DNA from: a virus
Reading direction: 5' to 3' (one strand)
Virus record (IMG/VR): IMGVR_UViG_3300049847_000198
Location: 48,082 to 112,081 of that record
Length of the DNA: 64,000 nucleotides
Positions 4,430 through 59,164 of this stretch are shown in pieces (positions within the stretch are counted from its first letter, which is position 1; every line of letters begins with the position of its first letter). The notes beneath the pieces are model-generated. The model was given only the letters and a program-made list of their open reading frames with translations, made no database searches and was not told the origin of the DNA. The position numbers and the translations under genes were made by a program.

Positions 4430-5971
4430 CTACGCCGGAACGACTGCGACTGTCGGCGATAGGCGGGACTGCCGAAAGCAGTCAACGAGACACTGCTCAG
4501 CGAACTTTGCGTCCGACTCCGTCACCAACAGGCTATCGTGGATCGTGCCAAGAAAACGCTTCGGTCTCGCCTTGAGGAACGCGGCAGCAGCTTTGTGGAT
4601 CACGTACTGGCTTTCGATGTTCTGGAGTAGCTTCGGTAAGACCGAGTGATGTGACCGCTTCAAGGTGCAGATGATCTTCCAGACGTGAGGAAATTCCCTG
4701 ACAAACAAATCTCGGAACAGGCGACCCGGAACGTCTTCTTTTTCGCAGAAGATGCACTCTCTGAAGAATGTCTGTTTGAACTCATGCCGAGCCATTGATG
4801 CGTAGCTGGTGCCAGCAGGCACTAGCTTTTGGAAGTGATCGTAGAGTTGGCCTTCACAGCAGAGCGTGATGTACCGCTCGCACTCTTTCCAGTGATGCTT
4901 TACCAGCCTGATCGCCGACAGAACATCGCTTTCGATGCTCTTGCTCAGAGGAACTGCCGAAGTCGGTTCTTGGTACAATTCCTGTGTGTTTTTGCAGTCA
5001 AAATCACCGTAAGTCGTTTCTTTAGTTGATTTTTCGTTAGATTGTTGCATCATAAGGGTGTGGGAGGGAGAGGGGCTTTCCTGCGGTTGTGTGGCGTTGT
5101 CTTGTGCGTTTGTTACATTTCGCGTCAGACGTTCAGTTGTGACTTTAGCTACACTGTAGTCGTTTTGTAATGAGTACCGTTCGATCTTGTGTATCAACTC
5201 ACGTACCTTGTCAGACTCCACGGTGTCGCTGAGGTTGAAAAGAAACATCAACAGACATCCGAAGATGAACGGCTGGCTGTTTCGGACATCGGTGTTCCAG
5301 AGTGATTCTCCGTGCCATCGCAGGTATTGCCGCAGGTCCGAGGACAGGTTCGTTAGGTTACTATGAACTCGCCCGTACTTGTCTTCCATCAAAAAGAATT
5401 GATGCGTTGAGATCATGGTGATGCTTGACTCGTCCATCCATTGAGCGAACTTCGGGTTCTTGGTTGCCGAATAGTCCTTGGCGAATCGCACATGCCGCAG
5501 AGCCGCTGGCGTGTCGATTTCCAGCCCTCTAAGCAGTTGGTACAGGGATTTGATCGTCGGACTTGAGAACCTGTCCTGCTGATCGTTTCGGAACTTGTCG
5601 ATCTTGCGGTTCAAGCGGCGGTTCTTGACCGGACGGATTACTCCGTAGGCGTATCGGAATGTGCCTGTCATGCGGTAGCTCCTTGAATAAAAACCAGCCC
5701 TATAGCTCAGATCGACCTCGATGACACCATTTTCTCTAAGCCAGTCGATCCACTTCGAGAGTCTCTTCCACGAAACGACCTCCCGTAGCTTGTCGATCTT
5801 CAAGTAAACCCAATCGTCCGGGTCGTATCGCCGCGAGTCGTGCATGAATCGCCCGTAGACGCAGTGAACGATGTAGGCGGCTTCCTCCCAGTGCTTCGAG
5901 AGTTCTGGCGGCGCACGACTGGCGATATCCAGCGTTTCAGGCAGCGTCAGATATCTCTGCGTCCAAGCCAC
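4430..5971 (-). CDS. Family-A/T7-like polymerase-fold protein, paralog 1
   Basis: GRVHSNLTNL, motif A-like DVRNSQP, motif B-like RHEFKQTFF, LQNIES, motif C-like TIHDS; no exonuclease domain seen. Confidence 0.65.
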   Translation of the reverse strand: MAWTQRYLTLPETLDIASRAPPELSKHWEEAAYIVHCVYGRFMHDSRRYDPDDWVYLKIDKLREVVSWKRLSKWIDWLRENGVIEVDLSYRAGFYSRSYRMTGTFRYAYGVIRPVKNRRLNRKIDKFRNDQQDRFSSPTIKSLYQLLRGLEIDTPAALRHVRFAKDYSATKNPKFAQWMDESSITMISTHQFFLMEDKYGRVHSNLTNLSSDLRQYLRWHGESLWNTDVRNSQPFIFGCLLMFLFNLSDTVESDKVRELIHKIERYSLQNDYSVAKVTTERLTRNVTNAQDNATQPQESPSPSHTLMMQQSNEKSTKETTYGDFDCKNTQELYQEPTSAVPLSKSIESDVLSAIRLVKHHWKECERYITLCCEGQLYDHFQKLVPAGTSYASMARHEFKQTFFRECIFCEKEDVPGRLFRDLFVREFPHVWKIICTLKRSHHSVLPKLLQNIESQYVIHKAAAAFLKARPKRFLGTIHDSLLVTESDAKFAEQCLVDCFRQSRLSPTVAVVPA

Positions 5972-6211
5972 GGATCATCCCGAATCGTTCGAGGATGCCG
6001 ATTTCTCGTGGCCAACAAAGAACGATAGCCACACGTCTCCGACAACGTATGGCTACGCCCTGAAATAAAGCCCGTAGGCTGTTGTTCCCTGTCCATACCG
6101 AGTCGGAGTTCGGCATCCAGATTATGCCGCTGCCGTCCGCTCGGATCAAGTCAAACCTATCATTCTCTGGTTTTCAGTAAAACGAACATCGAGTTACGGG
6201 AGATTCCCGAT

Positions 6212-6484
6212 TTACTGGCCAGCCGTTGAAGAAATCGCTGCACTCTGAAAGAACGGATTGTTCGGATTGGCGAACGCAGGCGGGTCGTCCATGCGCACCT
6301 TGTACCGGAACTTCATCTTTTCGGGATCGACCATGACGACTTGGTCTTTCCATTCGCCGCTGATGAAGAAGAACGGCTTCTGACCGCATTCGTCTCGCTT
6401 GAAGTTGCCGGCATTGACTGCCAAGAAATTCTTGTCGCCGTTCATGGCATAGACGGTTCGCAATCGCACTCTACTCATCGGCAT
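6212..6484 (-). CDS. Hypothetical protein
   Basis: 90-aa ORF overlapping the HU stop. Confidence 0.55.
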   Translation of the reverse strand: MPMSRVRLRTVYAMNGDKNFLAVNAGNFKRDECGQKPFFFISGEWKDQVVMVDPEKMKFRYKVRMDDPPAFANPNNPFFQSAAISSTAGQ

Positions 6485-6773
6485 ATTCCTTTTTTGCCAG
6501 TGCCGTGAACTTCCTCGCCAGCGTCGCTGAGGTGTTGAACTTAACGATCAGATTGTCAGGCACTTGAACGCTCTCCCCGGATCGTGGGTTCCTCGCCTTG
6601 TGTCCGGCACGCAGACGAACCTCAAAGACTCCGAGTCCTCTGACATCCACTCGGCGTTCCTCCTCCAGAGAAGCGACGATCGCCTTGAATGTTTTCTCGA
6701 CGAGTTCCCTGGTCTTCTTCTCGGTCAGACCAGTCATGTCCGAGATGGTTGCAATCAGTTTTTTGTTGAGCAA
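6471..6773 (-). CDS. HU/IHF-family DNA-binding protein
   Basis: VDVRGLGVFEVRLRAGHKARNPRSGESVQVP signature; AAGGAG RBS. Confidence 0.9.
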   Translation of the reverse strand: MLNKKLIATISDMTGLTEKKTRELVEKTFKAIVASLEEERRVDVRGLGVFEVRLRAGHKARNPRSGESVQVPDNLIVKFNTSATLARKFTALAKKEYADE

Positions 6774-6811
6774 GACAGACTCCTTGAACTCTCGACCCGC
6801 GAACTACTTTG

Positions 6812-6928
6812 TCAAAAATTGTATGCAGGCTTACCGATCAGCGTCTCGGCAGCGGGCTTGCTGGCAAGCTTAGCAATGAGGCAAGCAGCAACAACGAAAA
6901 AGAGCGTAATGATGCAGAATTCTTTCAT
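6812..6928 (-). CDS. Small membrane peptide (38 aa)
   Basis: MKEFCIITLFFVVAACLIAKLASK...; AAGGAG RBS; shares a 19-bp upstream element with the HU gene. Confidence 0.5.
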   Translation of the reverse strand: MKEFCIITLFFVVAACLIAKLASKPAAETLIGKPAYNF

Positions 6929-7030
6929 TCCACGACTCCTTCTTTAATAACTCTCGACCCGCGAACTCACTAGCCAGACGGGATTGGTTCTGCCCACGAG
7001 TGCTCTTTCTGGCCTTGAGACACATTAAAA

Positions 7031-7103
7031 TGCGACGTGACGGAATCGAACCGCCTTTCAGGGAGTTGAAAATCCCTTGCATGACCAATCTGCCAACGCC
7101 GCA
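7031..7103 (-). tRNA. Atypical tRNA, 8-nt anticodon loop (TTC Glu or TCA suppressor reading)
   Basis: Acceptor TGCGGCGT/ACGTCGCA; D arm GCAG-ATTGGTC-ATGC; anticodon arm AGGGA-TTTTCAAC-TCCCT; T arm GGCGG-TTCGATT-CCGTC; no encoded CCA. Confidence 0.85.
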
Positions 7104-7108
7104 CGAAC

Positions 7109-7606
7109 CTACCCGATCACCCAATACTTCTCGCCCGTCAGCCAGTTATGAAAGTCTGGCGAACCTGGTCGATAGTGAAGAAACTTGTCGATCTTCTTTT
7201 CGAGTCGTGCCGCATCAACCGGACGACTGCCTTTGTTCTCGACTTCCGAATACTTCCTGCCGCGAATGAACGCCAACGCGAGTCCCGCGTACCGAGACTC
7301 TTCTCGAAGTTCTCGAATGCGATGAGAGCGAAGCAGTTCGACGTAGATCAGTCCGCATCGCTTTTCTTCCTGACGGATCAGTCGCGACTCCGCAGCAAGC
7401 GATTTTGCGTTGATCCTGAGCCTATGGATCGCGAAGACTCTTTGGTTGTCCCATTCGCCGGGATGCGCGGCGGCGTAAACCAGTCGCCGTTCCTGACGCT
7501 TGGTTCGCTGCTTGATCTTCTTGCGTGCTCCGAACTGCGGATGACAGATGATGGCAGACGGAGCGAGTTGATTGTGGTTCTGGTTTTCGATGGTTGCTGT
7601 GGTCAT
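7109..7606 (-). CDS. Hypothetical basic protein
   Basis: ATG after AAGGA; 165 aa. Confidence 0.6.
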   Translation of the reverse strand: MTTATIENQNHNQLAPSAIICHPQFGARKKIKQRTKRQERRLVYAAAHPGEWDNQRVFAIHRLRINAKSLAAESRLIRQEEKRCGLIYVELLRSHRIRELREESRYAGLALAFIRGRKYSEVENKGSRPVDAARLEKKIDKFLHYRPGSPDFHNWLTGEKYWVIG

Positions 7607-7693
7607 ATCGTTTTCCTTGGAATTGAAACCTGAGATGGAAGAAAGAAACGTACCGTCGAACACTTCAGGAATCACGGCGGACCTCTCGCGTAT

Positions 7694-8485
7694 TCAGGAT
7701 TCTCCGTCAGGCTTCCATCCGTTACGGATCAAAACAGCGGCGAAGTCAGGCTTCAAATGATCTGGATGTTTTTTGAACTTGCCGTGCTCGTCAACGCTCC
7801 CGTTCTTGATCTTCAGAAGATTGTTTTCGTCTACGACGCTCTGCGCCTCGGCGAGTGGGAATCCGTGCGCGACGGAGGTTCCGACAGCAACGACACTGAT
7901 ATCGGCTACTGCGTCAAGCATTGCGACCAAATCAGGCTTCGCTGATTCCGCTAACCGCATCGCTGGATGAAAGAACAAGTCGTCGAAATCGACTCTTCCG
8001 GTATCGTGTCCAGTCGAAATAAACACCTGAACTGCCGCCGCGTCTGCGTACTCAAGCACTTCTTCTAAAAGAAGTCGCACACGAAGCTCTCGCGTCTTGT
8101 AGTCGGAGACTGTCGGCGACGGCGGGCATTCCTGCCCGAAGCCCTTCATCATCTGCCGCACGCGATCTTCGTGAGACGGCTTATGTGTCGGCCAGCAACC
8201 GATGAGTTTGTCTGCTGGATACGACTGCAAAGAAAACGGTTCGCTCGGTACTCCACAAACGGGAACCAAGTTGCGTCCGGCTGACCCAGAAACTTCACGA
8301 GCAATACCCTCAAGCAAAGACATGCGTCCTTCTCGCGTATAGGCCGTTCCGCTGGCAGACGTTTCGATGTCAAGTTGATCGCACCGCTCATGGTAACTAG
8401 CCACGTCTTCGGCGATCAGCGTTTGCAACGCAACTCCGCTTTCGATCTCTTCTTCCGTAAACGGTTCGGTTGGTTTTTCAATCAT
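7694..8485 (-). CDS. MazG-like/PRA-PH NTP pyrophosphohydrolase
   Basis: LRVRLLLEEVLEY, DAVADISVV, ENNLLK, GKFKKHPDHLKPD. Confidence 0.75.
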   Translation of the reverse strand: MIEKPTEPFTEEEIESGVALQTLIAEDVASYHERCDQLDIETSASGTAYTREGRMSLLEGIAREVSGSAGRNLVPVCGVPSEPFSLQSYPADKLIGCWPTHKPSHEDRVRQMMKGFGQECPPSPTVSDYKTRELRVRLLLEEVLEYADAAAVQVFISTGHDTGRVDFDDLFFHPAMRLAESAKPDLVAMLDAVADISVVAVGTSVAHGFPLAEAQSVVDENNLLKIKNGSVDEHGKFKKHPDHLKPDFAAVLIRNGWKPDGES

Positions 8486-9606
8486 TACCTTGCCTCAATT
8501 AGAGCCATAAGAAAGAAAACGCTGAAGTCCGCGTTACGCATCAGGAACGCACGCGGTTCCGACTGTGGACCACCAGCACACACATGCACAACCAGCGGTT
8601 CTTTGGACGGAAAGCACTTACTCGCCGAAGCCACGATCTCCACGTTCAAGCAAATCGTCACGTCAGGTTCGCCTTCACAACTACACGGCACCGTGGCTTC
8701 CGACTCACCATGCTGTGACTGCATCGACAGGCTGATCGTCTCTTTTTGGATGTGGGTGTCAATCCCCACGATCTCTGGCAGCTTCACCACGGCCATCTGT
8801 TGTGCTGCCAAGAAGAAATCACCAGCCTCTGCGATCGCCACTGGAGACGACTGCCTCAGTTTTCGATAGTTGGCCAGCGTGAATTTGCTGCCGATGTTCT
8901 GATGGCAGCCGACCTCAACAGCCATCTCTTCGCTCTTCGACTGCAATCGGATCGTCTTGTCGCTGGCGTAAACGTCCGCCTTCGTTCCAACACAGGCGTC
9001 GGCCAGCAGAGCGAGCGACTCGCGAGCACAGTTGATCTGCGGGAACTCTTCGCAGTCAGCGTTCAACGAGATACACACGAAGCGAGTCAGTTCGCTGCGT
9101 TCGCTCATGTCGTTACCGAAGACCATCGCCTTGCCAGCATCGCAGAATATGCCGCCTGAACCGATGCCGCCATCCCGCGTCGCTGACGACGAATACCGGA
9201 ACGCGGCACGCAGAACTTCAGGATCAGTCGAGAAGACAAACTTGTCGCTGAACTCCGGCATTGAGCGATTATCTTCTTCGTGCATCGTGTTGATGGTCGT
9301 CTTGCCGCCATCGAATGCGACGCCGATCTTCTCTTTGCCGACGCCGAGTTCTATAACTTCTCCGCGAGCACTCATTACGGCACCGAGAAGTTTTTCTGAC
9401 AGAACGTAGACGCAGAACTCGTCGTCGAACTTCTCTTCAAATGAGACCTCGCAGAACGCCGCCTGTGCATTCATCGCAAACAGAGACAGGACACGGTCTT
9501 TGCACGTCAGTTTGATCGCCTGATAGCACGGGTTCGGACTGCGAACAGCCGTGAACCGCGAGACCAGAGAGACAGCTTTCTTCAATAACTCAGATTTGAT
9601 TTTCAC
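8485..9606 (-). CDS. dnaN: DNA polymerase III beta sliding clamp-like protein
   Basis: 373 aa; N-terminus KSELLKKAVSLVSRF..RSPNP; C-terminal ICLNVE..ASK and FFLMAL pattern. Confidence 0.7.
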   Translation of the reverse strand: MKIKSELLKKAVSLVSRFTAVRSPNPCYQAIKLTCKDRVLSLFAMNAQAAFCEVSFEEKFDDEFCVYVLSEKLLGAVMSARGEVIELGVGKEKIGVAFDGGKTTINTMHEEDNRSMPEFSDKFVFSTDPEVLRAAFRYSSSATRDGGIGSGGIFCDAGKAMVFGNDMSERSELTRFVCISLNADCEEFPQINCARESLALLADACVGTKADVYASDKTIRLQSKSEEMAVEVGCHQNIGSKFTLANYRKLRQSSPVAIAEAGDFFLAAQQMAVVKLPEIVGIDTHIQKETISLSMQSQHGESEATVPCSCEGEPDVTICLNVEIVASASKCFPSKEPLVVHVCAGGPQSEPRAFLMRNADFSVFFLMALIEAR

Positions 9607-9828
9607 TTACTTGCCTTTCTTTGCGTTATCGGAGAACAGTTTTCGGCACTTCTCAAGGATGTCTTCGCTGTCGAAACAAGCCCATGCTCGTTGCTCGAAG
9701 TCTGTCTGGATGATCTCTTCAATCATCGACGCGGCGTCTTCAGGACTATGGCACATCAGCAACTCTTTGTCTGGAATTGTCGTGCTCTGCTTGGAGTTTT
9801 CTGTGCTGATTTCCCAATCAGTTTTCAT
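9607..9828 (-). CDS. Hypothetical protein
   Basis: GAAAGGCAA RBS; abuts the clamp gene. Confidence 0.5.
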   Translation of the reverse strand: MKTDWEISTENSKQSTTIPDKELLMCHSPEDAASMIEEIIQTDFEQRAWACFDSEDILEKCRKLFSDNAKKGK

Positions 9829-10131
9829 TGCTTGCCTTTCGGTTAGATTCGTCACGTTTCGGTCGCGGAGACACAAAAACAACCTCTTCACGACAGGAAG
9901 CCTCGCCATGCCTCACCGCCTTTGAAATCGCAGCGTCGATGGCTGAGATTTCCGTCTCGCCATAAGCACGAGACATCTCGCCGTAGTCCAAGGATTCATG
10001 AAACAACCAGGCAACGTAGGTTCCGTATTTGTCGGGGCCACTCACCACTGAAGTCACGAACATATCGCATTCCAATCGAACCTGGTTGACGTTTTACGCA
10101 ATCGTTTTTTGTTTAACGACTTGCGGCTTGA

Positions 10132-10145
10132 GTGCCACCTGACAC
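10132..10145. repeat. Degenerate parS-like palindrome (GTGCCACCTGACAC)
   Basis: One arm mismatch; flanks GA...TCGAAA conserved; intergenic. Confidence 0.6.
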
Positions 10146-10314
10146 TCGAAAGTTAGCTAAGCAATCGAGCATAGATGTCTCTGGTTTTCAGGAAGTCCGT
10201 GGGTCTCAACCCACAGCGAAATCAATTGATCTTCCCAGCAATCCGAGCACAGACCATAAGGCGAACCGACAGGTTCATCGTAGCGGAACAGTTGTCCGCA
10301 ATCGCAGCGTTGAT

Positions 10315-12556: not shown

Positions 12557-13108
12557 GTGGAGATTCGTACAGTGGGAAATTGCGCGTATTCGAGCGGCTC
12601 GATGGCCAGGGTGTGGTGTACGCAAGTAACCAGCGGGAATTGCAGTAATGCGCCGTTCTCGTCAGGCACTACGTTTTCGCCGTCCTACGCTGGTCTCGAC
12701 ACGACTTCAGCCGACTTTGTCGGTGCATTGGAGTCTTTCAACATCAACTACGGCCGAGAAATCCAGACCGTCAACACGGCCGAGCTTCTCGGAGCAACGG
12801 GCACGGTACGTGGTGTTGCTGGCGGAACCGGAGAAATGGTCGTCGTGACGGATGTTGACAATCCGATCGGAGACATCATCCAGTCTGGCGCTCTGTACGA
12901 CTTTGTCGTCACGGTCGGCAAGCTGGTTTCTGGCGTCGTTGTGCCCGTCAATGCGACAGACGCTGATGCTGAAAAAATCACTGGTCGCGTGCGATTCGGT
13001 CCCTGTCAGTTGACGCTCAACGAGAACGGAGAGGTTATGCGAGGCACGTTCCCGTACACCTGCCACGGACTTGCGTATGGCTTGGTCTTGGGTGCGTCTG
13101 ATTCGTAA
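12557..13108 (+). CDS. Putative major tail tube protein
   Basis: Beta-rich 183 aa; ESFNINYGREIQTVNT...GGTGEM...GTFPYTCHG pattern. Confidence 0.55.
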   Translation: MEIRTVGNCAYSSGSMARVWCTQVTSGNCSNAPFSSGTTFSPSYAGLDTTSADFVGALESFNINYGREIQTVNTAELLGATGTVRGVAGGTGEMVVVTDVDNPIGDIIQSGALYDFVVTVGKLVSGVVVPVNATDADAEKITGRVRFGPCQLTLNENGEVMRGTFPYTCHGLAYGLVLGASDS

Positions 13109-13146
13109 AATGATGACCACTTGACTGTTTAATCTCCAGTGAATAC

Positions 13147-13184
13147 AAGGCTGCCATGAATCATCATGGCAGCCTTTTTCTTTT
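13147..13184 (+). terminator. Intrinsic terminator-like hairpin
   Basis: Perfect 13-bp stem AAGGCTGCCATGA/TCATGGCAGCCTT, then a T tract. Confidence 0.7.
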
Positions 13185-13193
13185 GGAGAACTA

Positions 13194-14678
13194 ATGAACA
13201 TTTCGCGAGAAGATTTACAAAAGCTGATTATTGTCAAGGACTCTGGATGCTGGCACTGGAACGGAACAATTCATCTTCCTCACTACTGCCATGTGATTGT
13301 CGATGGCGAGAAATGCAACGCTCGTCGAGTGGTTAGGCAAGTTTTTGGACCACCATTCAACGAAAATCTTGCCCTGCTAAAGACCTGTAAAAACAACTAC
13401 TGCGTTGCGCCTGCGCATCACCTGACCGGCGATGAACGGTTTCTGAAAAACTACGCCGTCTCGGAAACTGGCTGCCATGAATGGAAGGGCGGGATTACGG
13501 TTAATGGATACGGAGTGACAGGGAACGGAGGTGGTTGCAAAAGAGCGCACAGGAGAATGTGGGAATTGAAGGTTGGTCAAATCCCGCAAGGGATGGTCAT
13601 CAGGCACCTATGCCATAATCGAAAATGTGTTAATATCGACCACTTAGCAGTTGGCACACACCAAGACAATATGGACGACATGGTTAAGGCTGGCAGAGCC
13701 TGTAACGGATGGAAGAACGGCAATTACAAGAAGTCTTACCTAGATGAAAAAGACATCCTCGAAATCAGGCAACTTGCCTCCGAAGACGAGTTTACTCTAT
13801 GGGAAATCGCCGAGGCTTACGGAGCCGATGTAAGCTATATCTCAGACATCGCAAAAGGTGATTGCTGGCCACAGGTTGGCGGACCAAGAACGAAAAGAGA
13901 AGACGATCCGGTTTTCAAATACATCACCAAGGGCAGCGAAAAGTTCAACGCCAAGATCACCGAGTCCGACGCAGTTCGTATCAGAGAACTATGCGACGAA
14001 GGAGTTCTCACACAGGGACAGATTGGAGATCAGTTCGGCATCGACCAAACAGAAGTCTCTGACATCGCTCACGGAATCATCTGGAAACACGTTGGAGGGC
14101 CGATTGTTGAAGGCCACTACCTGCCGACAAACCGAGAATACGACGTTGGCGAAGACCATCACGCAGCCAAGATCACTGAGATCGACGTCAAAGAGATTCG
14201 CAGGCTGTATGCCACAAAAGAAATGAATCAACAGCAGCTTGCCGAGCGATACGGACTAAAGCAGTGCCATGTATCCGACATCGTACTGAGTGTCTCGTGG
14301 AGTCACGTTCCGGCAGAGCATGAGATCAAAAAGAAAACCACTGGCGTAAACTCGCAAGGCAAAGCCTGCAAACTGACAGAAAATGATGTTATTCAAATGC
14401 GAGACTGCTACCGCAACGGAGCATCGTTCTCTGAAATTGCCAAAATGTTCAAAATCTCTCCAGATGCCGCCAGAAGCACGATCATTGGACTACGATGGAG
14501 TCATGTTCCCGGAGCGATTCCCGACGCCGGAAGAAACATCACAGAGAAGGATGCGATCAAGATAAAGGCGATGCTACGAGATGGAGAGAAGCCTAGATCA
14601 ATCGCAAAAGAACTAGGAGTCAAGCCGGGCGTTGTCTACAAAATATCAAGCGGTCAGTCATGGTCTCATGTGTCTTAG
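13194..14678 (+). CDS. HNH homing endonuclease with five C-terminal HTH repeats
   Basis: CHEWKG..GYG..AHRRMW..RHLCHNRKCVNIDHL..GTHQDN; five KxTExD..IR..W-x-HV-type repeats. Confidence 0.85.
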   Translation: MNISREDLQKLIIVKDSGCWHWNGTIHLPHYCHVIVDGEKCNARRVVRQVFGPPFNENLALLKTCKNNYCVAPAHHLTGDERFLKNYAVSETGCHEWKGGITVNGYGVTGNGGGCKRAHRRMWELKVGQIPQGMVIRHLCHNRKCVNIDHLAVGTHQDNMDDMVKAGRACNGWKNGNYKKSYLDEKDILEIRQLASEDEFTLWEIAEAYGADVSYISDIAKGDCWPQVGGPRTKREDDPVFKYITKGSEKFNAKITESDAVRIRELCDEGVLTQGQIGDQFGIDQTEVSDIAHGIIWKHVGGPIVEGHYLPTNREYDVGEDHHAAKITEIDVKEIRRLYATKEMNQQQLAERYGLKQCHVSDIVLSVSWSHVPAEHEIKKKTTGVNSQGKACKLTENDVIQMRDCYRNGASFSEIAKMFKISPDAARSTIIGLRWSHVPGAIPDAGRNITEKDAIKIKAMLRDGEKPRSIAKELGVKPGVVYKISSGQSWSHVS

Positions 14679-15930: not shown

Positions 15931-18885
15931 TCACTTCGAGTTGATAATCCCCAGAACCTCGCTCGGAGCGAGCGGCTTCCACTTGTTGTTCGCCAGCTTG
16001 TCGATCAACGCCGATGCGTGCGTGAAAGAAATCCGGTCAGGGTCGATGCCAGCCTTCGCAATCACCTTCGCCTGCTTGTAAGTGCAGAGCTTTTCTTTTC
16101 TTCGCTGCCCAATCCGATCCAGTGTTGCCGCCGCCATCGTGAACGACATCTTCGACATCTCTTCTGGCTTCACTCCATAGTGACCGAGAGCGTCGATCAT
16201 CTTCTGTGACGGCTTACGATTGCGATGCCACTCTGGTTCACGAATCGCATGGACGTGCAGCACATGAAAAACATCCACCTTCTGTCGCGTGTACGCAACC
16301 TTCGCTTCGATCATCTTCCGCTTATCGGCATCCAACGCAAGACGTGCCATCTCTCGCTTCTGGCGTTCCGCTTCCAGTTCTTCTTCGGCCTTCTCCAAGG
16401 CTTCGACGGCGTTCTTTGGTCCGTTGCCGTCTTTCGCGTTCTCGTTCGCACGAGCAACCACTTCGTCAGGCATGTTGCCACCGAGAATGTCGATAGCAGA
16501 GACGAGCGAGTGTCGTGTGTTTCCCACAAAATCTATGGCAGTCATCGTTTTTTTACCAGACTGCTCAATAGCCGATCTGCGTTCTTCTGGAGTGCCTAGT
16601 CGCCACCAATCTCCGTTCTCGTTTTTTCCTTCGATGACATTCGGAAGAACTCGCGTTCCACGTCCAATCTGCTGAGCAACCACAGAGCGAGACTTAGTTG
16701 GTCTTCCGAGTGCGATATACTGCGTAATTGGTGCATCAAAGCCTTCGACGCAGTTTCCCATCACAGTCACTGTTCCACGCCTTCTTGTGATGATGTTTTT
16801 GCTCTGCGTACTGACGCACCAAACTTTTTCAGATTTCCAGTTATCTTCGACTTGTAGAGAGTGCCCTTTTGTTGTTTTGTGTATCTTGGTTTTCTTTAAG
16901 CAAATCTGATTCAGTCGCCTGCTGTTTTCTCCATTAAAAGAATCGTGAACAGAAGCCCTGTACCCACGACAGCAAGCTATCGCTTGGATTAGATCAAACA
17001 ACTGCTTGTTAGCACCGCACACATAGAAGGAGTCGCCCTCAGGCCGTATGCTGTTTTTGTGGTCCGTTCCATTTGCCATCCACCAACCGTAGAGAAAACA
17101 GTCGAACTGCTCGTTACTGAACCCCCAGTAAAGTTCGCTGCCAGACTTTTTTAGATATGGCTCAAGGCGATAAACGCCACGCCTAGCCTGTGGTCCAGAA
17201 CCAGTTCCGCGAGGCAAAGACCAACTATGTCCATCTGCCTTGAATGTCCCGGATTTCTTGTTCCTCTCAATCTTGTCTATGCCGCACTTATCGAGAAGGT
17301 GATTGACTCGATCTATGATCGCTGGATTCTTGTTTGGTTGGAAAAGTTTGTACTCGATCCCGCCAGTCTTGAGTCGGGATGAAGTTCCGTCGCCAACCCA
17401 AAACCCAATTAACTCACATTCTTCAAGAGTTAATTCCGGTGGATTTGAATACTTAAAACTGGCAAGATATTCGACTCGCCTAATAGCCTCGGCCTTGGCC
17501 TCAGTCTTTCCTAGGCCCCTCTTTCTTAGTTCATAAGAGAGAGAACGTATCTTTGAAGGAGTAACTTTCCTGGTCTCTTGAACTGGTTTCACATTAAATG
17601 GAACGGCAACGCCAGACACAGGCAACTCTACGGACAATCCAGACAACTGCTTGGCTGTTTTTTTCTTGAAATCACCATCCCTGAATGTGCGATATAAGAG
17701 ATCGTGGTCTTCTGTGACTCGAATTGACCTTCTTCCGGTGTCCAGTGACACCATTTTTTCTTCTGGAAGACGATCTCGCTTGATAAGTGAAATAGGCTTC
17801 TCGAACCACGCTTCTCCCTGATCCCAGTTAGCGATGAGGTGCTGGTCGGTGATTGAATCCATTCCAATAAAACCAGAGGATGTCAGGATTTCGGTTTCTG
17901 AATCAAGACATACTCCAACATTCACAAGCTGAGAGAACTCTCCCTTACGGAACGAATTGAATAGCCTTCTACGTCTATCCTTGTCTGAAGAAAGGACGCA
18001 CCACGGATACTCTTTACCGTCGTCAGGGACGCGAGACACGATGGCGTAGCTGGACCCGGATTGCTTGCGGCAGAATATCTCGCTTGTGCGCACCGCCTGC
18101 TCAACTCCAGCAGTGAACACGATCGTTGACTTACCGCCAGAAATGTCCCATGTGGCTTCAGTAACTCTGTGTAGCGGCTTTTCTTTAAGCATCTCCTGCT
18201 CAAGCTGTGAATCAATGAAATCTCCACAAGAGACGCCAACCGCGTCTAACTGAAGGTCTTCGACAAATACAGTTTCCTGTTCAATCGGAACAAGCCATCC
18301 GTCATTGATCGCAGACGGACCTCCGTTTGGACTGTAAAGCTGGTACTCGAAAGCGACCGCTTCAAAACTCTGGCCCAACGCCTGTTCGTCGCTCCTGTCT
18401 GGCGTCGCAGTAACAGACGCGACCCGACAAGCCGGATTGCCTTCAAGAAAGTAGTTCACTATATTTGAGTAAGTTTTGTTCGCCTGAACAAAATGATGGC
18501 CCTCATCAATGATTATCAAACAAATCTCTCGTGGGTCCGGGAATTCCGAACGAAGCCTTTCTAGCCTAAACAAAGTTTGAACGCTGGCAAAAGTGATTCG
18601 AGATTTGAACTTGTTGCCTACTCGCGTCTGTTTCTGTTGTACGATGTCGCCAAAGTCGTCGTACAGATCACGCCACATTGCGTGCGGCTGAGTGACGAGT
18701 TCCTCTCGGTGAGCGAGCCACAGAACTTTTCCACCATCACTGCCGGCCGCAACAGACAGAGAAATGACAGTTTTTCCGCATCCTGTCGGGAGTACGCTCA
18801 AGCATGATCGCTTATTCGTTAGCGTTCCAAGAATCGCGTCCCTGCACTCTATCTGATAGTCCCTCAAGAAGTCGTCACTAATCAT
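15931..18885 (-). CDS. SF2 DExH helicase containing an intein
   Basis: LRDYQ, LPTGCGKT, IIDEGHH, TATPDR, EGFD, QQIGRGTR. Confidence 0.92.
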   Translation of the reverse strand: MISDDFLRDYQIECRDAILGTLTNKRSCLSVLPTGCGKTVISLSVAAGSDGGKVLWLAHREELVTQPHAMWRDLYDDFGDIVQQKQTRVGNKFKSRITFASVQTLFRLERLRSEFPDPREICLIIIDEGHHFVQANKTYSNIVNYFLEGNPACRVASVTATPDRSDEQALGQSFEAVAFEYQLYSPNGGPSAINDGWLVPIEQETVFVEDLQLDAVGVSCGDFIDSQLEQEMLKEKPLHRVTEATWDISGGKSTIVFTAGVEQAVRTSEIFCRKQSGSSYAIVSRVPDDGKEYPWCVLSSDKDRRRRLFNSFRKGEFSQLVNVGVCLDSETEILTSSGFIGMDSITDQHLIANWDQGEAWFEKPISLIKRDRLPEEKMVSLDTGRRSIRVTEDHDLLYRTFRDGDFKKKTAKQLSGLSVELPVSGVAVPFNVKPVQETRKVTPSKIRSLSYELRKRGLGKTEAKAEAIRRVEYLASFKYSNPPELTLEECELIGFWVGDGTSSRLKTGGIEYKLFQPNKNPAIIDRVNHLLDKCGIDKIERNKKSGTFKADGHSWSLPRGTGSGPQARRGVYRLEPYLKKSGSELYWGFSNEQFDCFLYGWWMANGTDHKNSIRPEGDSFYVCGANKQLFDLIQAIACCRGYRASVHDSFNGENSRRLNQICLKKTKIHKTTKGHSLQVEDNWKSEKVWCVSTQSKNIITRRRGTVTVMGNCVEGFDAPITQYIALGRPTKSRSVVAQQIGRGTRVLPNVIEGKNENGDWWRLGTPEERRSAIEQSGKKTMTAIDFVGNTRHSLVSAIDILGGNMPDEVVARANENAKDGNGPKNAVEALEKAEEELEAERQKREMARLALDADKRKMIEAKVAYTRQKVDVFHVLHVHAIREPEWHRNRKPSQKMIDALGHYGVKPEEMSKMSFTMAAATLDRIGQRRKEKLCTYKQAKVIAKAGIDPDRISFTHASALIDKLANNKWKPLAPSEVLGIINSK
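16753..17910 (-). mobile_element. Intein (386 aa) with LAGLIDADG-type endonuclease
   Basis: Starts CLDSETEILT; block B VTEDH; LIGFWVGDG and FLYGWWMANG; ends TVMGN|C; splits motif V (LVNVGV|CVEGFD). Confidence 0.9.
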
Positions 18886-20259: not shown

Positions 20260-21209
20260 TATCTTGCCTCCGGGTGAATCGCACGAAACTGCATATCGCT
20301 CAGCCAACCACTGCCGCCGCATCTCTGGCAGTCGCCGCCCACGCACTTCGGGCATTCCTTCGCTGGCTTCGACACTCGCAGGCACTCCTGCGCCGACTTG
20401 ATGTGTGCCTTCAGTTCATTCGTCTTGATCCGCTGTCCGCCATGCTCTTCCGTCAGGTCTTCGGCATCCCTCAAAAGATCGCCAAGCCGGTTTATCAACG
20501 CCTGAATCTTCCCAGCCGTCTCTTTTGCCACCTGCCACTTCGTCTGCGTGCCCGCAGGAGCGTTCGCGACAGCTTCCGTGAGCGTTTTAGCCTTCCCGGA
20601 CTTCACGGCTGCTACAGCCTCGATTTGGGCCTCTGGCGGCATATCCGCAATCTTCGAGGCATCGTTCACGCTGACGACGCCGTCGTCGACAGCCTTGACG
20701 ACAGATTCGTCAGCTTCGTTCAAAACTTTCGCCGCACGAAAAGCGGACCTACGTGACGCTCCAGTCTCTGTAGCTGCTTGCTCCACAACATCTTCCGTCG
20801 CTCGCTTTTTTCGAGTGCCACGTGGCACCTGAGTTTCTTCGGCTGCTTTGTCGGGTAATCCCTGCGTTCCGTTGCGATACGCAGCAATGCGTGCTGCCGC
20901 CATCGCTCGGTCCTTCGGCGTCAGGTGCCTGCGATTGATATTCTTCGACTTCACGAACTCCAAAAGAGCGGCATCGAGTTCAGCGTCCGACGTGATGCCG
21001 TCTGGAGGTTCCCACTCACGGTACTGCGGAGCGATTCCAGCGTCACGACAGGCGAGTTGGCGGTTCTTACCATCAAGAACTTGCCCTTCGTAAGTCACGA
21101 TCCAGTCTTCAAGCCCGTTGTCTTTGATCGACTCGACAAGATCGTCGTATTCATCGCCCAAAACATGACCGAAAATTTCGCAGTATGGGTGGTGCGGAAG
21201 CAATTGCAT
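20259..21209 (-). CDS. ParB/Srx-family protein with HTH and C-terminal Zn finger
   Basis: LVESIKDNGL..IV..VLDGKNRQLAC, SKNINRRHLT, HTH AATETGASRRSAFRA, CPKC..CQRC; likely start ATG 21209. Confidence 0.85.
   Translation of the reverse strand: MQLLPHHPYCEIFGHVLGDEYDDLVESIKDNGLEDWIVTYEGQVLDGKNRQLACRDAGIAPQYREWEPPDGITSDAELDAALLEFVKSKNINRRHLTPKDRAMAAARIAAYRNGTQGLPDKAAEETQVPRGTRKKRATEDVVEQAATETGASRRSAFRAAKVLNEADESVVKAVDDGVVSVNDASKIADMPPEAQIEAVAAVKSGKAKTLTEAVANAPAGTQTKWQVAKETAGKIQALINRLGDLLRDAEDLTEEHGGQRIKTNELKAHIKSAQECLRVSKPAKECPKCVGGDCQRCGGSGWLSDMQFRAIHPEAR
20815..20828. repeat. parS-like palindrome (GTGCCACGTGGCAC) inside the ParB-like gene
   Basis: Perfect 14-bp palindrome with full consensus flanks; encodes VPRGT. 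Confidence 0.85.
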
Positions 21210-39477: not shown

Positions 39478-39777
39478 CTACTCTCCGTCGAAATGACTGA
39501 CGAAGGTGTTGATTATCCAGACGCCGCCACTGGCGAACATCCCGTCGAGAAACCATGAGATACTTTCAGGTGCCACGTGGCACTCGAAAGTTGGACTCCA
39601 GCAAGTCAACGAAAGTGCAAAACCTACCCAAGTCCCCGTACACATCATGCACGAGAACAGTTCGCTCAGCCACTTGCTGCGTGGCTCCAGCCAGTTGCGG
39701 AACGGCTCAAGCTGCTTCGAGTAGACCAAAATCTGGCTCAAGCCGAACGCGGTTATTAGCCAAACGAAGAAGTTCAT
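39478..39777 (-). CDS. DUF1360-like membrane protein
   Basis: PFRNWL...ELFSCMMCTGTWVG; TM segments. Confidence 0.65.
   Translation of the reverse strand: MNFFVWLITAFGLSQILVYSKQLEPFRNWLEPRSKWLSELFSCMMCTGTWVGFALSLTCWSPTFECHVAPESISWFLDGMFASGGVWIINTFVSHFDGE
39570..39583. repeat. parS-like palindrome (GTGCCACGTGGCAC)
   Basis: TTTCAGGTGCCACGTGGCACTCGAAAG, full consensus. Confidence 0.85.
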
Positions 39778-54417: not shown

Positions 54418-55262
54418 ACACAGACTTCATCGGAGTCGCTTCCAGAACCGACCGGGCATAGATCCTCGCAGTCCGAACCGCTGCCGATACTGCCACCCTC
54501 GCCAGAGTGCCACCTCGTTTTAGCCGCCCAACCACGCACACCGTTCCATGCGGCTGGAAAGCTTGGAGAATGAGCACCGCCAAAGAAATAGCCCATCTGC
54601 GAATCGTCTCTCAGACAAATTGTGTCGCCCTCGCTGACACCGCTTCCGGAGCATAGCACGCGACGGACTGTGCCTGTCCCCGTCAGCGTGCAGCAATTCA
54701 CCTCGGACAAAGCGAACTCGATGAGTTCGCCTCCAGATGAACCTCCGCCGCCCATTGGACGCAACTCGCCATCCAACAGAATGCAGAAGACGTAATCGCC
54801 ATCAGATGCAGATAGATCCGTTCTTCGATTGACTATCTGGAATTCGTCGCCAATATCAGCGAAAGACAAAGCCTCTTGGTCTGTGTTTACTTTATGGTTC
54901 GTTGGCCTGAGTCGTCTCATCGTCACGACAACAGGATCATCAAGCGGGTCAGTCGATGCTGGCATGTCTTCAAGAAGGATGCCCTCAAAAAACAATCCCG
55001 GCATCTTGAATTCAGGGTTCCCTGAGAAAGCCGCGAAGTTCAGTCCAGGCATCGAACGCTGTAGCTGATTCGGACGCGAAGCCTGCTCGGAGATATCACG
55101 AAGCTGAGACGCCGTTACCGGGCTACCACCAACGAACTTAACGGGCGGAAGCTGTCCAACACCAACGGCGTTGCCTGCTGGAATGTCGCCATTAACGGCT
55201 TTCGGTAGCTTGGATGGTATTGGCACGTCTGGCGGCTTCCATAACTGACTCGATGTTCGCAA
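54375..55262 (-). CDS. Putative tail protein
   Basis: Gly/Cys-rich; start uncertain. Confidence 0.45.
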   Translation of the reverse strand: MRTSSQLWKPPDVPIPSKLPKAVNGDIPAGNAVGVGQLPPVKFVGGSPVTASQLRDISEQASRPNQLQRSMPGLNFAAFSGNPEFKMPGLFFEGILLEDMPASTDPLDDPVVVTMRRLRPTNHKVNTDQEALSFADIGDEFQIVNRRTDLSASDGDYVFCILLDGELRPMGGGGSSGGELIEFALSEVNCCTLTGTGTVRRVLCSGSGVSEGDTICLRDDSQMGYFFGGAHSPSFPAAWNGVRGWAAKTRWHSGEGGSIGSGSDCEDLCPVGSGSDSDEVCVWTVVSLMDTANYC

Positions 55263-55539
55263 AAGAGAACGTGCGGGAGTCTATCGCGGCGGACAACTTG
55301 GTCAAAGTCTGTTCCAGTGCATCACACGGAACGAATTCCGCTTCCGAACCAGACGCATATAGCCATCCGATGTTCGGCATGTAGCAATTGCCGTACTGAT
55401 AAAGGTGCTCGACAAGCGACTGAAAAACATGCTCTATTACGGCGGTTGCGCAAATAGGCGGCGTTCCGAGCATGAGCGAGACGGAATACGCCAACTCACT
55501 GAGGCAACGATCCCTGTCGAGCGATAGGTGGTCCGTCAT
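55192..55539 (-). CDS. Hypothetical protein (weak HU-like pattern)
   Basis: Helical N-terminus then MPNIGWL...FVPC..L. Confidence 0.4.
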   Translation of the reverse strand: MTDHLSLDRDRCLSELAYSVSLMLGTPPICATAVIEHVFQSLVEHLYQYGNCYMPNIGWLYASGSEAEFVPCDALEQTLTKLSAAIDSRTFSFANIESVMEAARRANTIQATESR

Positions 55540-55835
55540 GCTTGCCGTACTCGGTACTCGAACCAGACGGATTTCATTTCAGTCTCAGCAGAGACTGAAA
55601 AATGGTTCTGGTTCTTTTCGCACTGTGTCTTCGCCTGATTCGCCTGTTCCTCAGTCGCATATCGAGTCGATGTGTGCCATTCACGGTCAAGAAAAACCAA
55701 TTCTTTTCGGAAGTCGGGATTCACACGACGCTCAAGAATCCACGGCTTCGTCTTGGCAGCACGCTTTCGGTATCTCGGCTTGTCTCCGTCTGGTTCAGCG
55801 TGCATGTTTACCTTCGTCGAAAAAGATCGGCTCAC
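55536..55835 (-). CDS. Hypothetical protein
   Basis: ATGA-coupled ORF. Confidence 0.5.
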   Translation of the reverse strand: MSRSFSTKVNMHAEPDGDKPRYRKRAAKTKPWILERRVNPDFRKELVFLDREWHTSTRYATEEQANQAKTQCEKNQNHFSVSAETEMKSVWFEYRVRQA

Positions 55836-56018
55836 TCTTCAGCACTTCGTCGTTCCATGCTCTCAGCCAGTACGGGTCGCTGCTGATTTCAGAACACTCG
55901 CACGGCCAATCACTAACTCCACACGGGCACATCGCCTGTAACTTACTCAGTCGTCTCTGCTGGCAAATCTGAGCACAGCGACGCTGCGTTGAGACTGAAA
56001 AACTATCCTCTTCGCACA

Positions 56019-56648
56019 TTACCACGGTCTCTCACCGGACATCGCAGTCAGCCGCTCAAACGACGTCTTCTGCTGCACGAAATCTTCGGTCGGACGCCGC
56101 TTCAGTTCTTCGACGATCCGTGCCTTCATGCTGCCGCGCAGGTTCTTCATGTTACCGACCATCCACTCAAGATAATCGGCAGGCACCTTGGAAATCGCAA
56201 CTCCCGACCACTTCCCAAACGGCATCAGGAACTCAGGTGTCGGTCCAGCTTCCTTTAAGAGCTCCATGCACAGCTTCGTCGCCTCAGCGTTCTCGCTCGC
56301 CGGAATCCACTTGATCGCGACGTTGCGACCTTCCGCCAGCTTCTTGCACTCGGCGATCTTCTTTTTGATCCAAGACTTGTTCACCGCGAACTCGCCGGTC
56401 CATTGGTTTGCCAACATCAAGGCGTCTGAAAAGATCGTCACGTCTCGAATGTCGTCTTCGGCGACCAGCTTCATTGCGGCGAGCAGTCCCTCGTAGCCGC
56501 CATTGCAGTGACTCACGTTCTGGCCGAATCCTGCCGGTCCATTCTCGTCGGCGTAGAACTCGCCGTCTTTTTTCGCGACGAATGCGTAGCACGCAGTTCC
56601 TCCGGGATTCGGAGCACAGTAGCCCTTGACGTAGATTTGGAACATCAC
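56019..56648 (-). CDS. RNase HI-fold protein (catalytic residues altered) with DUF3820-like domain
   Basis: YVKG.C.PNPG, IFSD..L..Q..G, WIP..EN; MPFGKWSG..I..VPADYLEW. Confidence 0.75.
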   Translation of the reverse strand: MMFQIYVKGYCAPNPGGTACYAFVAKKDGEFYADENGPAGFGQNVSHCNGGYEGLLAAMKLVAEDDIRDVTIFSDALMLANQWTGEFAVNKSWIKKKIAECKKLAEGRNVAIKWIPASENAEATKLCMELLKEAGPTPEFLMPFGKWSGVAISKVPADYLEWMVGNMKNLRGSMKARIVEELKRRPTEDFVQQKTSFERLTAMSGERPW

Positions 56649-57259
56649 TTCGCCTCCACTGCCGAATCACTGGCATCCTCTTTGTCTTTGAACGAAAACA
56701 GATCGCACTCAGGATGACGGTATTCAGGGCAGCAATCGGTTCCGTCGTTCGGGAAGTCATAGAGCGACTCGTCTCCCCACTCGGACCACAGATCGTACAT
56801 ATCCTCCAGGGCTTCCTCGACTTCTTCCTGAGTCTTCGTCCCGGAATAAAGAACAGGTCGATCAGTCTCAACAACCTTTCCGACATCTTCCATGAGTCGC
56901 TCGTAGGTCAGCCCGAAGTCGTCGGCGAAACGCTGTATGGTTGCGTTTCTTTTGACTTCCCTCGTCGGTGCCGCAAAAGCGATTTCAGGGTGATCCCAGT
57001 GATGCTGCACGTTCGGAATCTCCGTCTGCGCCATGAGCAACCAGAAGGACTTACCGGTCAGGATTGTTGACTTCAAAAACGGATCAGCGACTCCCGGACC
57101 TTTTTCGTCAGGCACCGCCTCGTTGAATTCGTTCAAGCCGACTCGCGATCCCGGAGCGATTGGCTTGCCAGCCCGCACCGCCACAATCGCGACGTGAATG
57201 GCGTCCTTGTCTCCAAGTTCAGCCGGACTCTTTCCGAGGACGTTCTTTTTGTTAATCAC
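56645..57259 (-). CDS. Conserved phage hypothetical protein
   Basis: DAIHVAI, GVADPFL, FWLLM, HHWDHP; GAAAGGCAA RBS. Confidence 0.65.
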   Translation of the reverse strand: MINKKNVLGKSPAELGDKDAIHVAIVAVRAGKPIAPGSRVGLNEFNEAVPDEKGPGVADPFLKSTILTGKSFWLLMAQTEIPNVQHHWDHPEIAFAAPTREVKRNATIQRFADDFGLTYERLMEDVGKVVETDRPVLYSGTKTQEEVEEALEDMYDLWSEWGDESLYDFPNDGTDCCPEYRHPECDLFSFKDKEDASDSAVEAK

Positions 57260-57306
57260 TACTTTGCCTTTCTGTGAGTTGAAATAGAAGCGATAAGCGG
57301 ACGAGG

Positions 57307-57335
57307 ATTTTACCAAAACGAACAGCGTTTCGCAA
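57307..57335 (-). promoter_or_regulatory. Phage promoter motif TTGCGA-N17-TAAAAT
   Basis: TGTTCGTTTTGGTAAAAT identical to the 12426 site. Confidence 0.7.
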
Positions 57336-57351
57336 CCAAAGACGTTTTCGA

Positions 57352-57365
57352 GTGCCGCGCGGCAC
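57352..57365. repeat. parS-like palindrome (GTGCCGCGCGGCAC)
   Basis: Extended GTTTTCGAGTGCC..GGCACCTGAAAAC; divergent intergenic region. Confidence 0.85.
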
Positions 57366-57496
57366 CTGAAAACTAAGGCTAGAAGTTTTTGATCGGCCCA
57401 TCTAAACTAGAAGCCGCGAGAGGAACGAGTCCAATCGCGGCTTTTTCGTTGTCTGAAGCGTTTCGCGGCGCGTCAGGCGGCAGCTACATCAGGGCA

Positions 57497-59164
57497 ATGA
57501 TGAGCATGACGGATTTTATTCCAGCCACGAAGAAACGTCAATCAGCCAGAAGACCGCATTCATTGACGGTCCCGAAGGAAATTCGGTTTGGCGATTTGCC
57601 GCCAGAATTGGCCAAGCATCCCGAAGAGGGACTCTGGATCGTCAGTTCGCTTTTTAGTCGCTCGCTTTACGATTCGCGGTACGAAAATGCCGATCAGTGG
57701 GTTCCGCTTAGCTCCAAGGTGATGGCGAAAATCGTCCGCAAAGAATGCGTCAAGAAGTGGCTTTCTTTTCTGGAACCAGAATTCATTAAGTGTCGGGGAA
57801 AGTCCTATCAGGCAGGCGTTAAGTCAAAGGAATACAGAATGAGCGACAAGTTCCGCCATCAGTCAGGGAAAACGATTCAAGTTCGAGACAAGATGGTCTC
57901 CGAGAAACTCGACGGCTGGCAGGCTGAACGAGAGGAATGGAAAGGCGACAAGACGCTGGAAATGCTTCTCAAACACCTCGACAAGATCACGATTCGGCGG
58001 CAGGCGGCCACGGACTACATCTACCATGAGAAGGACTACAGCGATCCGAGCATCAAGAACCCGGAGCACGCCAGAAACTGCGACGAGACATCAATCGAGG
58101 CGATGGCCTCAAAGCATCGCTTTTTCATCGTAGACAAGTACCGCAGAATCCACACGAACCTGACGAACATCTCGTCCGACCTGCGGCAGTTCTTGCGGCT
58201 ACGGAAAGGCGGAGACCTGAGCGTCGTAGACATCCGCAACAGCCAACCATTCATCTTCGGCTGCCTGCTTCACGAACTGCTCGGCATGAGCGACGACATT
58301 CGCGACATGGCGACGGCAGAGATCGCTAGGCGAGTTTACGAGTACGCCAACGACGCCATCGCAGAGGACGAAAACGAACGACGCCGAGACGTGAACAAGC
58401 GTAAACGTAGTGAACATCTGACGCCATCAAGTTCCGCTGCCGCCTCGTCCGCTCCCGTTCCCCCGCTCCATCCCACACCCTTATGTGTCGGGTTTTTGGC
58501 ACAAAATGACCACTTTGAGATTCGTAAGTCTGAACAGGAACTGGAGTTACGTCAATTTAATAGCGTGTGTCCACTGCCAGACACAAAAGGCGCAAGTAAA
58601 TACAAGGTAACGACTTACGAAAACACATCTCGCTCAATTCTGTCGATTTCGTCCGAATCCGTGGTCGCGGCGATCAGACTGGCAACGTGGCACAAATCCG
58701 AGATTCAGAGGTATTCAGACCTGTGCTCTCAGGGATTGCTCTACGAGTTTTTCGCGCAGCACTTGGCGACTGGGTCGGAACTCAAAGACCCGTTGAATCG
58801 TCGCCGCCTCAAGGAGTCGTTCTTCCAAGAGACCATCTACTGCAAGAGCGTGACGGCACCTGACAGGCAACTCAGGGATGTTTTTAAGAACGAGTTTCCG
58901 GGAGTCTGGAAGATCGCCTGTCAGCTAAAATCCTCTCACCATTCCGTGCTACCCAAGCTGATGCAGTTTTTAGAGAGCGGATACATCAGGAAGGCCGTCG
59001 AGATATTCGCTCAGAAGCATCAAAATCGCTTTGTAGCCACGATCCACGATTCCCTGATGGTTGAGCACTCTCTGGCTGAAGACGCTGAGGAAGCGATCAG
59101 GGACGCTTTCAGCGGCATTCCACTGATGGTGCATACCGAGCGGCTGTCGTGGCACGCTGGGTGA
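57497..59164 (+). CDS. Family-A/T7-like polymerase-fold protein, paralog 2
   Basis: RRIHTNLTNI, DIRNSQP, RRRLKESFF...Y, LMQFLES, TIHDS; collinear with 4430..5971; ATG 57497 preferred over the track start. Confidence 0.65.
   Translation: MMSMTDFIPATKKRQSARRPHSLTVPKEIRFGDLPPELAKHPEEGLWIVSSLFSRSLYDSRYENADQWVPLSSKVMAKIVRKECVKKWLSFLEPEFIKCRGKSYQAGVKSKEYRMSDKFRHQSGKTIQVRDKMVSEKLDGWQAEREEWKGDKTLEMLLKHLDKITIRRQAATDYIYHEKDYSDPSIKNPEHARNCDETSIEAMASKHRFFIVDKYRRIHTNLTNISSDLRQFLRLRKGGDLSVVDIRNSQPFIFGCLLHELLGMSDDIRDMATAEIARRVYEYANDAIAEDENERRRDVNKRKRSEHLTPSSSAAASSAPVPPLHPTPLCVGFLAQNDHFEIRKSEQELELRQFNSVCPLPDTKGASKYKVTTYENTSRSILSISSESVVAAIRLATWHKSEIQRYSDLCSQGLLYEFFAQHLATGSELKDPLNRRRLKESFFQETIYCKSVTAPDRQLRDVFKNEFPGVWKIACQLKSSHHSVLPKLMQFLESGYIRKAVEIFAQKHQNRFVATIHDSLMVEHSLAEDAEEAIRDAFSGIPLMVHTERLSWHAG

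Follow-up and report, generated by a model that had tools for sequence, protein, structure and literature searches.

We analysed the right-hand 64 kb of a 112,081-bp IMG/VR virus record (IMGVR_UViG_3300049847_000198), which is estimated to be 79% complete. This stretch of 64,000 nucleotides (nt), here called the window, carries two polymerase-like genes that share a 25-nt motif read in different frames. Positions refer to the window unless given as genome positions. Gene 1 (4430..5971, minus strand) encodes P0001, a protein of 513 amino acids (aa) with a predicted TV-Pol-like family-A polymerase fold and without an exonuclease domain. Gene 2 is a TV-Pol-like paralogue, listed as an open reading frame (ORF) at 57389..59164 on the plus strand (P0002, 591 aa as listed). 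Its closest homologue is P0003, a protein from another sample that is 62% identical to P0002, and comparison with P0003 indicates that the true start of gene 2 is probably the ATG at 57497 or 57500. P0001 and P0002 are 37% identical. In a maximum-likelihood tree they fall into one clade (support 100/98), about 2 substitutions per site apart.

Neither protein has a Pfam match of any kind, an NCBIfam match or an informative PHROG match. Their polymerase-like nature, proposed in a first-pass annotation made from the DNA letters, was borne out by structural matches to family-A DNA polymerases. An AlphaFold (AF2) model of P0002, with a predicted local distance difference test score (pLDDT) of 76, aligned over ~260 residues with Bst Pol I, T7 DNAP, the apicoplast polymerase (apPOL) and Pol theta (VIA Z 12–13.6), and the top Foldseek matches of the model were all family-A polymerases. 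Four residues are invariant in an alignment of 14 sequences (P0002 numbering): R253, the Arg of RIHTNLT; D281, the Asp of DIRNSQP; K475, the Lys of R...K; and D554, the Asp of TIHDS. R471 is retained in the four closest sequences. The exonuclease domain is absent, and an extra N-terminal domain of ~200 residues is present. Judged from predicted fold, motifs, size and taxon range, both genes fit the TV-Pol family. Members with the N-terminal domain are numerous in metagenomes, with 9,731 cluster representatives (E ≤ 0.001), and occur in Bacteroidota, Planctomycetota and huge phages.

A long insertion between motifs A and B, 100–160 aa in length and disordered, is restricted to a small clade of this family. 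In P0001 the predicted disordered loop spans residues 272–338 (4958..5158, minus strand) and in P0002 residues 340–415 (58406..58633, plus strand), each with pLDDT <50. These two loops hold the two copies of the motif, which lie between motif A and motif B of their genes.

The motif pair in the two genes

Copy 1, CCCCTCTCCCTCCCACACCCTTATG, lies at 5051..5075 on the minus strand, inside gene 1, where it encodes PSPSHTLM. Copy 2, CCCCGCTCCATCCCACACCCTTATG, lies at 58461..58485 on the plus strand, inside gene 2, where it encodes PPLHPTPLC. On recheck, the sequences and coordinates given for both 25-mers in the first-pass annotation were exact, and direct comparison confirmed the match at 23/25 positions and the identical 15-nt core (TCCCACACCCTTATG) that it had reported. 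The core word of the motif is CACANCCNTTATG. Outside the 25-mers the flanks of the two phage copies have no similarity. The copies are inverted repeats 53,385 nt apart, each on the coding strand of its own gene. A third copy is absent from the whole 112,081-bp record, even when the match is relaxed to at least 17/23 positions or at least 12/15 of the core. A genome-wide repeat is ruled out, as only two copies occur in 112 kb.

We scanned every diagonal between the two coding strands in 25-nt windows. The motif is the top window, with 23 identical positions, followed by motif A (22), motif C (21) and the NLTN-SSDLRQ block (21), and it is the only one of these top windows that is out of frame. 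Among 200 dinucleotide shuffles of the whole genes, the maxima were 17–20, and the 15-nt core is expected 0.03 times in the window. The 25-mer pair is real and well beyond chance. The two linkers are proline-rich and C-rich, and such low-complexity DNA does lift the background: 5-mer peptides are often common to composition-matched shuffles and homologues, and exact matches of 10–12 nt between insertions are frequent in shuffles. The 23/25 match nevertheless exceeds the highest value (20) of all the shuffles, the 15-mer has the low expectation given above, and two further significant copies stand beside other TV-Pol genes, as described below. We therefore reject chance similarity, to which we give next to no weight.

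Reading frames and copies in other genomes

Across the core, the reading frames of gene 1 and gene 2 differ by one base. Gene 1 reads TCC CAC ACC CTT ATG (SHTLM), and gene 2 reads caT CCC ACA CCC TTA TGt (PTPLC). All positions in the motif that serve as third codon position in either gene are identical, and elsewhere in the two proteins the same codon is used at 95 of the 193 identical residues. The codons shared in the motif include rare ones (CCC, 12%; TTA, 5%). With the best window out of frame and the frames offset by one base, the claim that conservation acts on DNA or RNA rather than on protein is supported.

Homologous proteins give related evidence. When gene 1 is translated out of frame, the resulting PLPPTPL is an exact 7-mer of P0003, and its in-frame PSPSHTL is a 7-mer of P0042, a homologue from a Gemmataceae metagenome-assembled genome (MAG; GenBank MBX9584959.1). 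None of 400 composition-matched shuffles shared a 7-mer with homologues. Within the clade, the peptides at the motif position correspond to different frames of the same DNA: frame A in P0001 and P0020, frame C in P0002 and P0003, and probably frame B in P0015. Because the site sits in an indel-prone segment that encodes a disordered loop, the frame across the motif could drift while the nucleotides stayed. As a lead from these comparisons, three peptide classes of the family (PLRC, YDV and T-M) may be three frames of one DNA word. One DNA-verified pair bears on this idea, as L161 and L172 share the 12-mer TCCAATACGATG in different frames; this 12-mer is not significant relative to shuffles.

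We scanned 721 kb of loci around TV-Pol homologues for the motif and identified two significant matches. The first is in a Planctomycetaceae MAG (complete chromosome OY970189.1, 8 Mb), where CCCACACCATTATGATGCAAC matches gene 1 at 20/21 positions. It is the sole site in the 8-Mb genome within three mismatches. The MAG copy is antisense to the single TV-Pol gene of this genome, whose stop codon it overlaps, and lies at the end of a C-rich tract. Among 300 random phage 21-mers, none had a 20/21 match in the same 721 kb. The second match is in L165, from another Planctomycetia genome, where CACAGCCTTATGTCTTTGGT matches gene 2 at 16/20 positions and none of 200 shuffles was equally good. This copy is in the TV-Pol insertion and encodes QPYVFG. 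The codon phase of the TTATG of the motif is 2 in L165, 1 in gene 1 and 0 in gene 2, which places the L165 copy in the third frame. The core common to the copies is about CACA-N-CC-N-TTATG, and the ATG is kept in all four DNA-verified copies. In combination, these alignments support a nucleotide-level, frame-independent conservation that now extends to two other genomes.

The MAG locus (L037) has further features of its own. Its ParB-like gene and its TV-Pol gene are preceded by a partial tRNA at 3047–3099 (Rfam, 27 bits; positions 10–63 of 71) and two DDE transposase genes at 566–2714. This arrangement suggests that a mobile element has integrated here or that the locus is a hot spot for insertions.

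An alternative is that a conserved peptide left the motif behind as a frameshifted relic. In this case a short linear motif like PSPSHTLM (frame A) would have been encoded in the loop ancestrally, and compensated indels in the tolerant linker would have moved the lineage of gene 2 and P0003 to frame C. The copies in the phage would have been kept alike by short-patch gene conversion acting on the inverted repeats with the aid of its RecA, Erf-like protein and exonuclease. Several divergent homologues do have frame-A peptides (PSPSHTL in P0042, PHTLMC in P0020, PSPHTL in P0032 and AHTL in L058), and the HTL codons differ in L058 and L036. An I-M-L-V-K peptide occupies the same place in homologues of the Bacteroidota type. 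Moreover, a Ser precedes the motif in frame A of both genes, from different codon families (AGC and TCC). The linker is indel-prone, with an Isosphaeraceae homologue frameshifted within it, and the recombination genes that conversion would use are present in the phage. However, the shift must be old, because P0003, from another sample and 62% identical to P0002, shares the frame-C peptide; even so, frame A of gene 2 has kept its coding potential intact. Conversion inside one genome also cannot account for the noncoding 20/21 copy in the MAG or the third-frame copy in L165, and homology in the flanks, on which conversion could act, is absent. We regard this peptide origin as possible, if on the unlikely side. 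Should it be correct, the locus would document a concrete case of overprinting within a loop that is disordered.

Structure at the motif, and possible roles in translation and recombination

We searched for canonical G-quadruplex patterns, defined as four runs of three or more G with loops of 1–7 nt. The record of 112 kb has only two, with 0.38 expected, and both are at the motif copies. One (5056..5075, plus strand) is on the strand complementary to copy 1, and the other (58454..58480, minus strand) is complementary to copy 2, with its fourth G run outside the shared 25-mer. One such pattern also occurs near the MAG copy, in a background of 68% GC. Because the L165 copy is not C-rich, the G-quadruplex is probably not the conserved feature. 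Sense RNA folded around three copies (gene 1, gene 2 and L037) was less structured than shuffles (z +1.1 to +1.2), and we found no RNA hairpin or Rfam family at the motif.

Programmed frameshifting or another form of recoding is unlikely, because P0002 and P0003 remain conserved in their ORF frame both before and after the motif, and the alternative frames close 0–8 codons past it; the low structure of the RNA also disfavours recoding. ARAGORN detected a tRNA with a four-base anticodon, ttca, at 7030–7103 (minus strand), which might read UGAA as a codon or suppress frameshifts. Quadruplet decoding by this tRNA as the cause of the frame difference is ruled out, as UGAA is absent at the relevant places. 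We also ruled out anti-Shine-Dalgarno pairing with the ribosome-binding sites of the genes themselves, as complementary G-rich sites are absent upstream.

One homologue, L047/L167 from an Isosphaeraceae MAG (G002:C196), is split between two frames within the insertion. Its N-terminal frame ends CAT CCA TAA TGA, and its C-terminal frame has ...NTSIMTQE.... The possibility that the motif marks an ancestral split-gene junction, with overlapping stop and start, was rejected on this homologue, the only split one, which keeps the conserved peptide upstream of its Met. Given that position, L047/L167 resembles a gene with a frameshift, for which pseudogene decay, misassembly and recoding are all possible explanations.

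The invariant ATG raises the question of whether the motif instead acts as a signal at the level of translation, either by giving gene 1 an internal start for a separate C-terminal product (fingers and motif C) or, where the frame differs, by serving as a start-stop, a mini-ORF or a signal for re-initiation. In gene 1 the sequence ATG ATG is in frame, the TGA of frame C overlaps the start as ATGA, and a Met is kept at the motif position in many homologues. The presence of the ATG in all four DNA-verified copies and the low structure of the sense RNA in the three folded copies are consistent with such a role. However, the ATG opens an ORF of only 8 codons in gene 2 and 4 codons in L165, so that there is no common translation product. 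A Shine-Dalgarno-like sequence is absent at a usable distance, the MAG copy is antisense to its gene, and no split forms were found among shorter proteins. We consider a translation signal quite unlikely.

The orientation of the copies, inverted and 53,385 nt apart, could instead point to DNA rearrangement or mobility. The motif would then be a recombinase crossover site that inverts the 53-kb segment, the target of a homing endonuclease, or a trace (footprint or end) of a small mobile element that moves together with TV-Pol genes. Among the phage genes are several for HNH endonucleases and one for a TnpB, the region of the MAG copy has the two DDE transposases and the tRNA fragment, and TV-Pols are typical of mobile elements (Iyer, Abhiman and Aravind, 2008, PMC2579912). 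The TnpB gene, of the IS605 OrfB/TnpB type, is at genome positions 12901–14106 (minus strand), outside the window. An inversion switch is unlikely, because neither gene would keep its full length: a crossover between the inverted copies, within the core, ends both just past the motif (...PTPL-stop and ...SHTLMCRVFGTK-stop). No recombinase or endonuclease gene adjoins either copy, and an unoccupied target would not be expected to persist over such divergence. Overall, a mobility site of any of these kinds seems very unlikely.

A candidate initiation site and its relation to known systems

In the reading that we favor, selection acts directly on the 25-mer as a short nucleic-acid element, carried in, or adjoining, the genes of one minimal family-A TV-Pol lineage of Planctomycetia and their phages. 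The polymerase or a partner may use this cis site for initiation, whether by priming there de novo in preference to other places, by using it much like an origin, or by binding to it. We suggest an initiation role by analogy, because CCPol-MP of SCCmec, the one characterised TV-Pol that we know of, primes preferentially beside its own operon. In that system, primers begin opposite a template C, and the ori region next to the operon is preferred (PMC7581432). The points that we count for an initiation site are the recurrence of the motif by TV-Pol genes in coding and noncoding settings, its independence of frame, and the unstructured C-rich strand or RNA. We put the probability of a short cis element tied to the TV-Pol lineage, possibly an initiation site, at roughly 0.4.

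A more specific proposal is that this frame-free site of 13–25 nt is the initiation site of the polymerase itself, which we consider doubtful. TV-Pols with the N-terminal domain would recognise the site and initiate de novo synthesis, of DNA or of RNA, on its C-rich strand. To our knowledge, no TV-Pol with this domain has been biochemically characterised. If the proposal holds, each gene would be a portable unit of polymerase and start site, and the phage genome, in which no other DNA polymerase was found, would have a pair of start points, convergent or divergent, in its two inverted copies. The "self-contained polymerase-plus-site module" of the first-pass annotation, with an origin, priming site or promoter that the encoded enzyme would recognise, is a hypothesis of this kind, drawn by analogy. 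Constant nucleotides under a changing frame are a rare and clean signature of cis function within coding sequence. An initiation role would define the template specificity of a class of polymerases and explain these genes as portable replication modules.

Several observations weigh against a selected initiation element. No iterons or direct-repeat family were detected at either site, and the motif is single copy in each gene. There is no clear AT-rich unwinding region; AT content reaches 57–58% in one 100-nt window downstream of both copies, relative to 42–53% around them. In the GC skew, where an origin might show, the extremes (genome positions 44.7 kb and 108.9 kb) track the orientation of the genes, and neither falls at gene 1. 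The minimum of the cumulative GC skew is 1.6 kb beyond gene 2, where it coincides with a switch in gene orientation. The expectation that homologues would carry the motif irrespective of frame held in part. The noncoding copy in the MAG and the third-frame copy in L165 agree with it, but 10 of the 12 other insertion-bearing or neighbouring homologue regions had no significant DNA match. The insertion itself is absent from most family members. Scans of IMG/VR with the 15-mer and with two 16-base, 17-position variants gave 23, 9 and 9 matches, respectively, none with extended similarity or a TV-Pol gene nearby, and a protein-pattern scan and a 19-of-20 DNA scan of Joint Genome Institute (JGI) metagenomes gave no match. 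P0003, P0020, P0015 and P0042 were compared at the peptide level, so the evidence that they provide for one DNA word is indirect. Finally, because distant homologues keep a related peptide (HTL, or I-M-L-V-K with an invariant Met) using different, synonymous codons, the sequence may have begun as a protein motif.

We examined the rest of the record for replication genes. The Pfam families DNA_pol_A, DNA_pol_B and DNA_pol3_alpha had no match in the 112,081-bp record, at its estimated completeness of 79%, and the two TV-Pol-like genes are the sole polymerase folds recognised so far, a point that we also count for the cis-element reading. In addition to RecA, an Erf-like protein and an exonuclease, the phage encodes a clamp-like processivity factor (8485–9606) and a helicase (15931–18885), the latter ~10 kb from gene 1. 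Among the ORFs that neighbour genes 1 and 2, the only Pfam match is an RNase H-like (RVT_3) domain, in an ORF at 56019–56648 (minus strand) that is two genes upstream of gene 2 and divergent from it. Directly downstream of gene 1 is a 1641-aa ORF (1–4332, minus strand, continuing to genome position 47488) without a Pfam or PHROG match.

A family of palindromes, TTTTCGA-GTGCC-NNNN-GGCAC-TCGAAAA, is also present. It is not a canonical terminator, because a T run precedes it and an A run follows it in both orientations. Three of the eight good copies flank the TV-Pol genes: one is 3 nt past the stop codon of gene 1 (4394–4427), and the others are before (57341–57374) and after (59360–59393) gene 2. 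Further copies are at 20804–20837, 39566–39588, 59918–59949 and 59974–60004, and at genome position 30369. A 6-nt unit, CGGC-A/T/G-A, is repeated in tandem over positions 63736–63997, forming a long array at the right end of the record.

The first-pass annotation had likened the motif to the replication origin of phage lambda. Ori-lambda consists of four iterons and an AT-rich region inside gene O, read in one frame. The likeness is that a cis replication site is embedded, in a linker-coding segment, in the very gene whose product is proposed to act on it. In contrast, the phage described here has a single site of 13–25 nt, without iterons and with a drifting frame, and the protein has a polymerase fold and is not an initiator. 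The cre of picornaviruses, an RNA hairpin with a conserved loop in the coding region, is kept for primer synthesis by the polymerase. It resembles the motif in being a short nucleic-acid element within an ORF that is conserved for something other than the encoded protein, as proposed here, whereas the RNA around the motif is predicted to be unstructured and the genome is double-stranded DNA.

The TV-Pol family was described from its core, consisting of a thumb, a beta-hairpin Arg, a palm with two Asp and fingers with RxxxK, with the nuclease domain absent, and from its occurrence in planctomycetes, bacteroidetes, phages and mobile-element hot spots, with a subset that has an extra N-terminal domain (Iyer, Abhiman and Aravind, 2008, PMC2579912). 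The proteins reported here have the same core, taxon range and N-terminal domain as that subset. They differ in the intragenic cis motif, which was not described for the family (PMC2579912), and in the disordered insertion of 100–160 aa that separates motif A from motif B in a small clade only.

The closest functional parallel is CCPol-MP with the Cch2 helicase of SCCmec (Bebel et al., 2020, PMC7581432). Unlike the proteins reported here, CCPol is without the extra N-terminal domain (PMC10061031). The neighbouring ORFs, judged by Pfam, include no gene for an MP-like single-stranded DNA-binding protein or a Cch2-like helicase, and iterons of the AAGTG type are absent. The CCPol-MP ori word ACCACTTA is loosely similar to ACACCCTTA here, a mere resemblance. 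The site in our phage is inside the polymerase coding sequence, or across the stop codon in the MAG, whereas the preferred de novo start of CCPol-MP is a short DNA site beside its own genes (PMC7581432). It is in this proximity of site and gene, and in the presence of a minimal A-family (TV-Pol) polymerase on a mobile element, that the two systems are alike.

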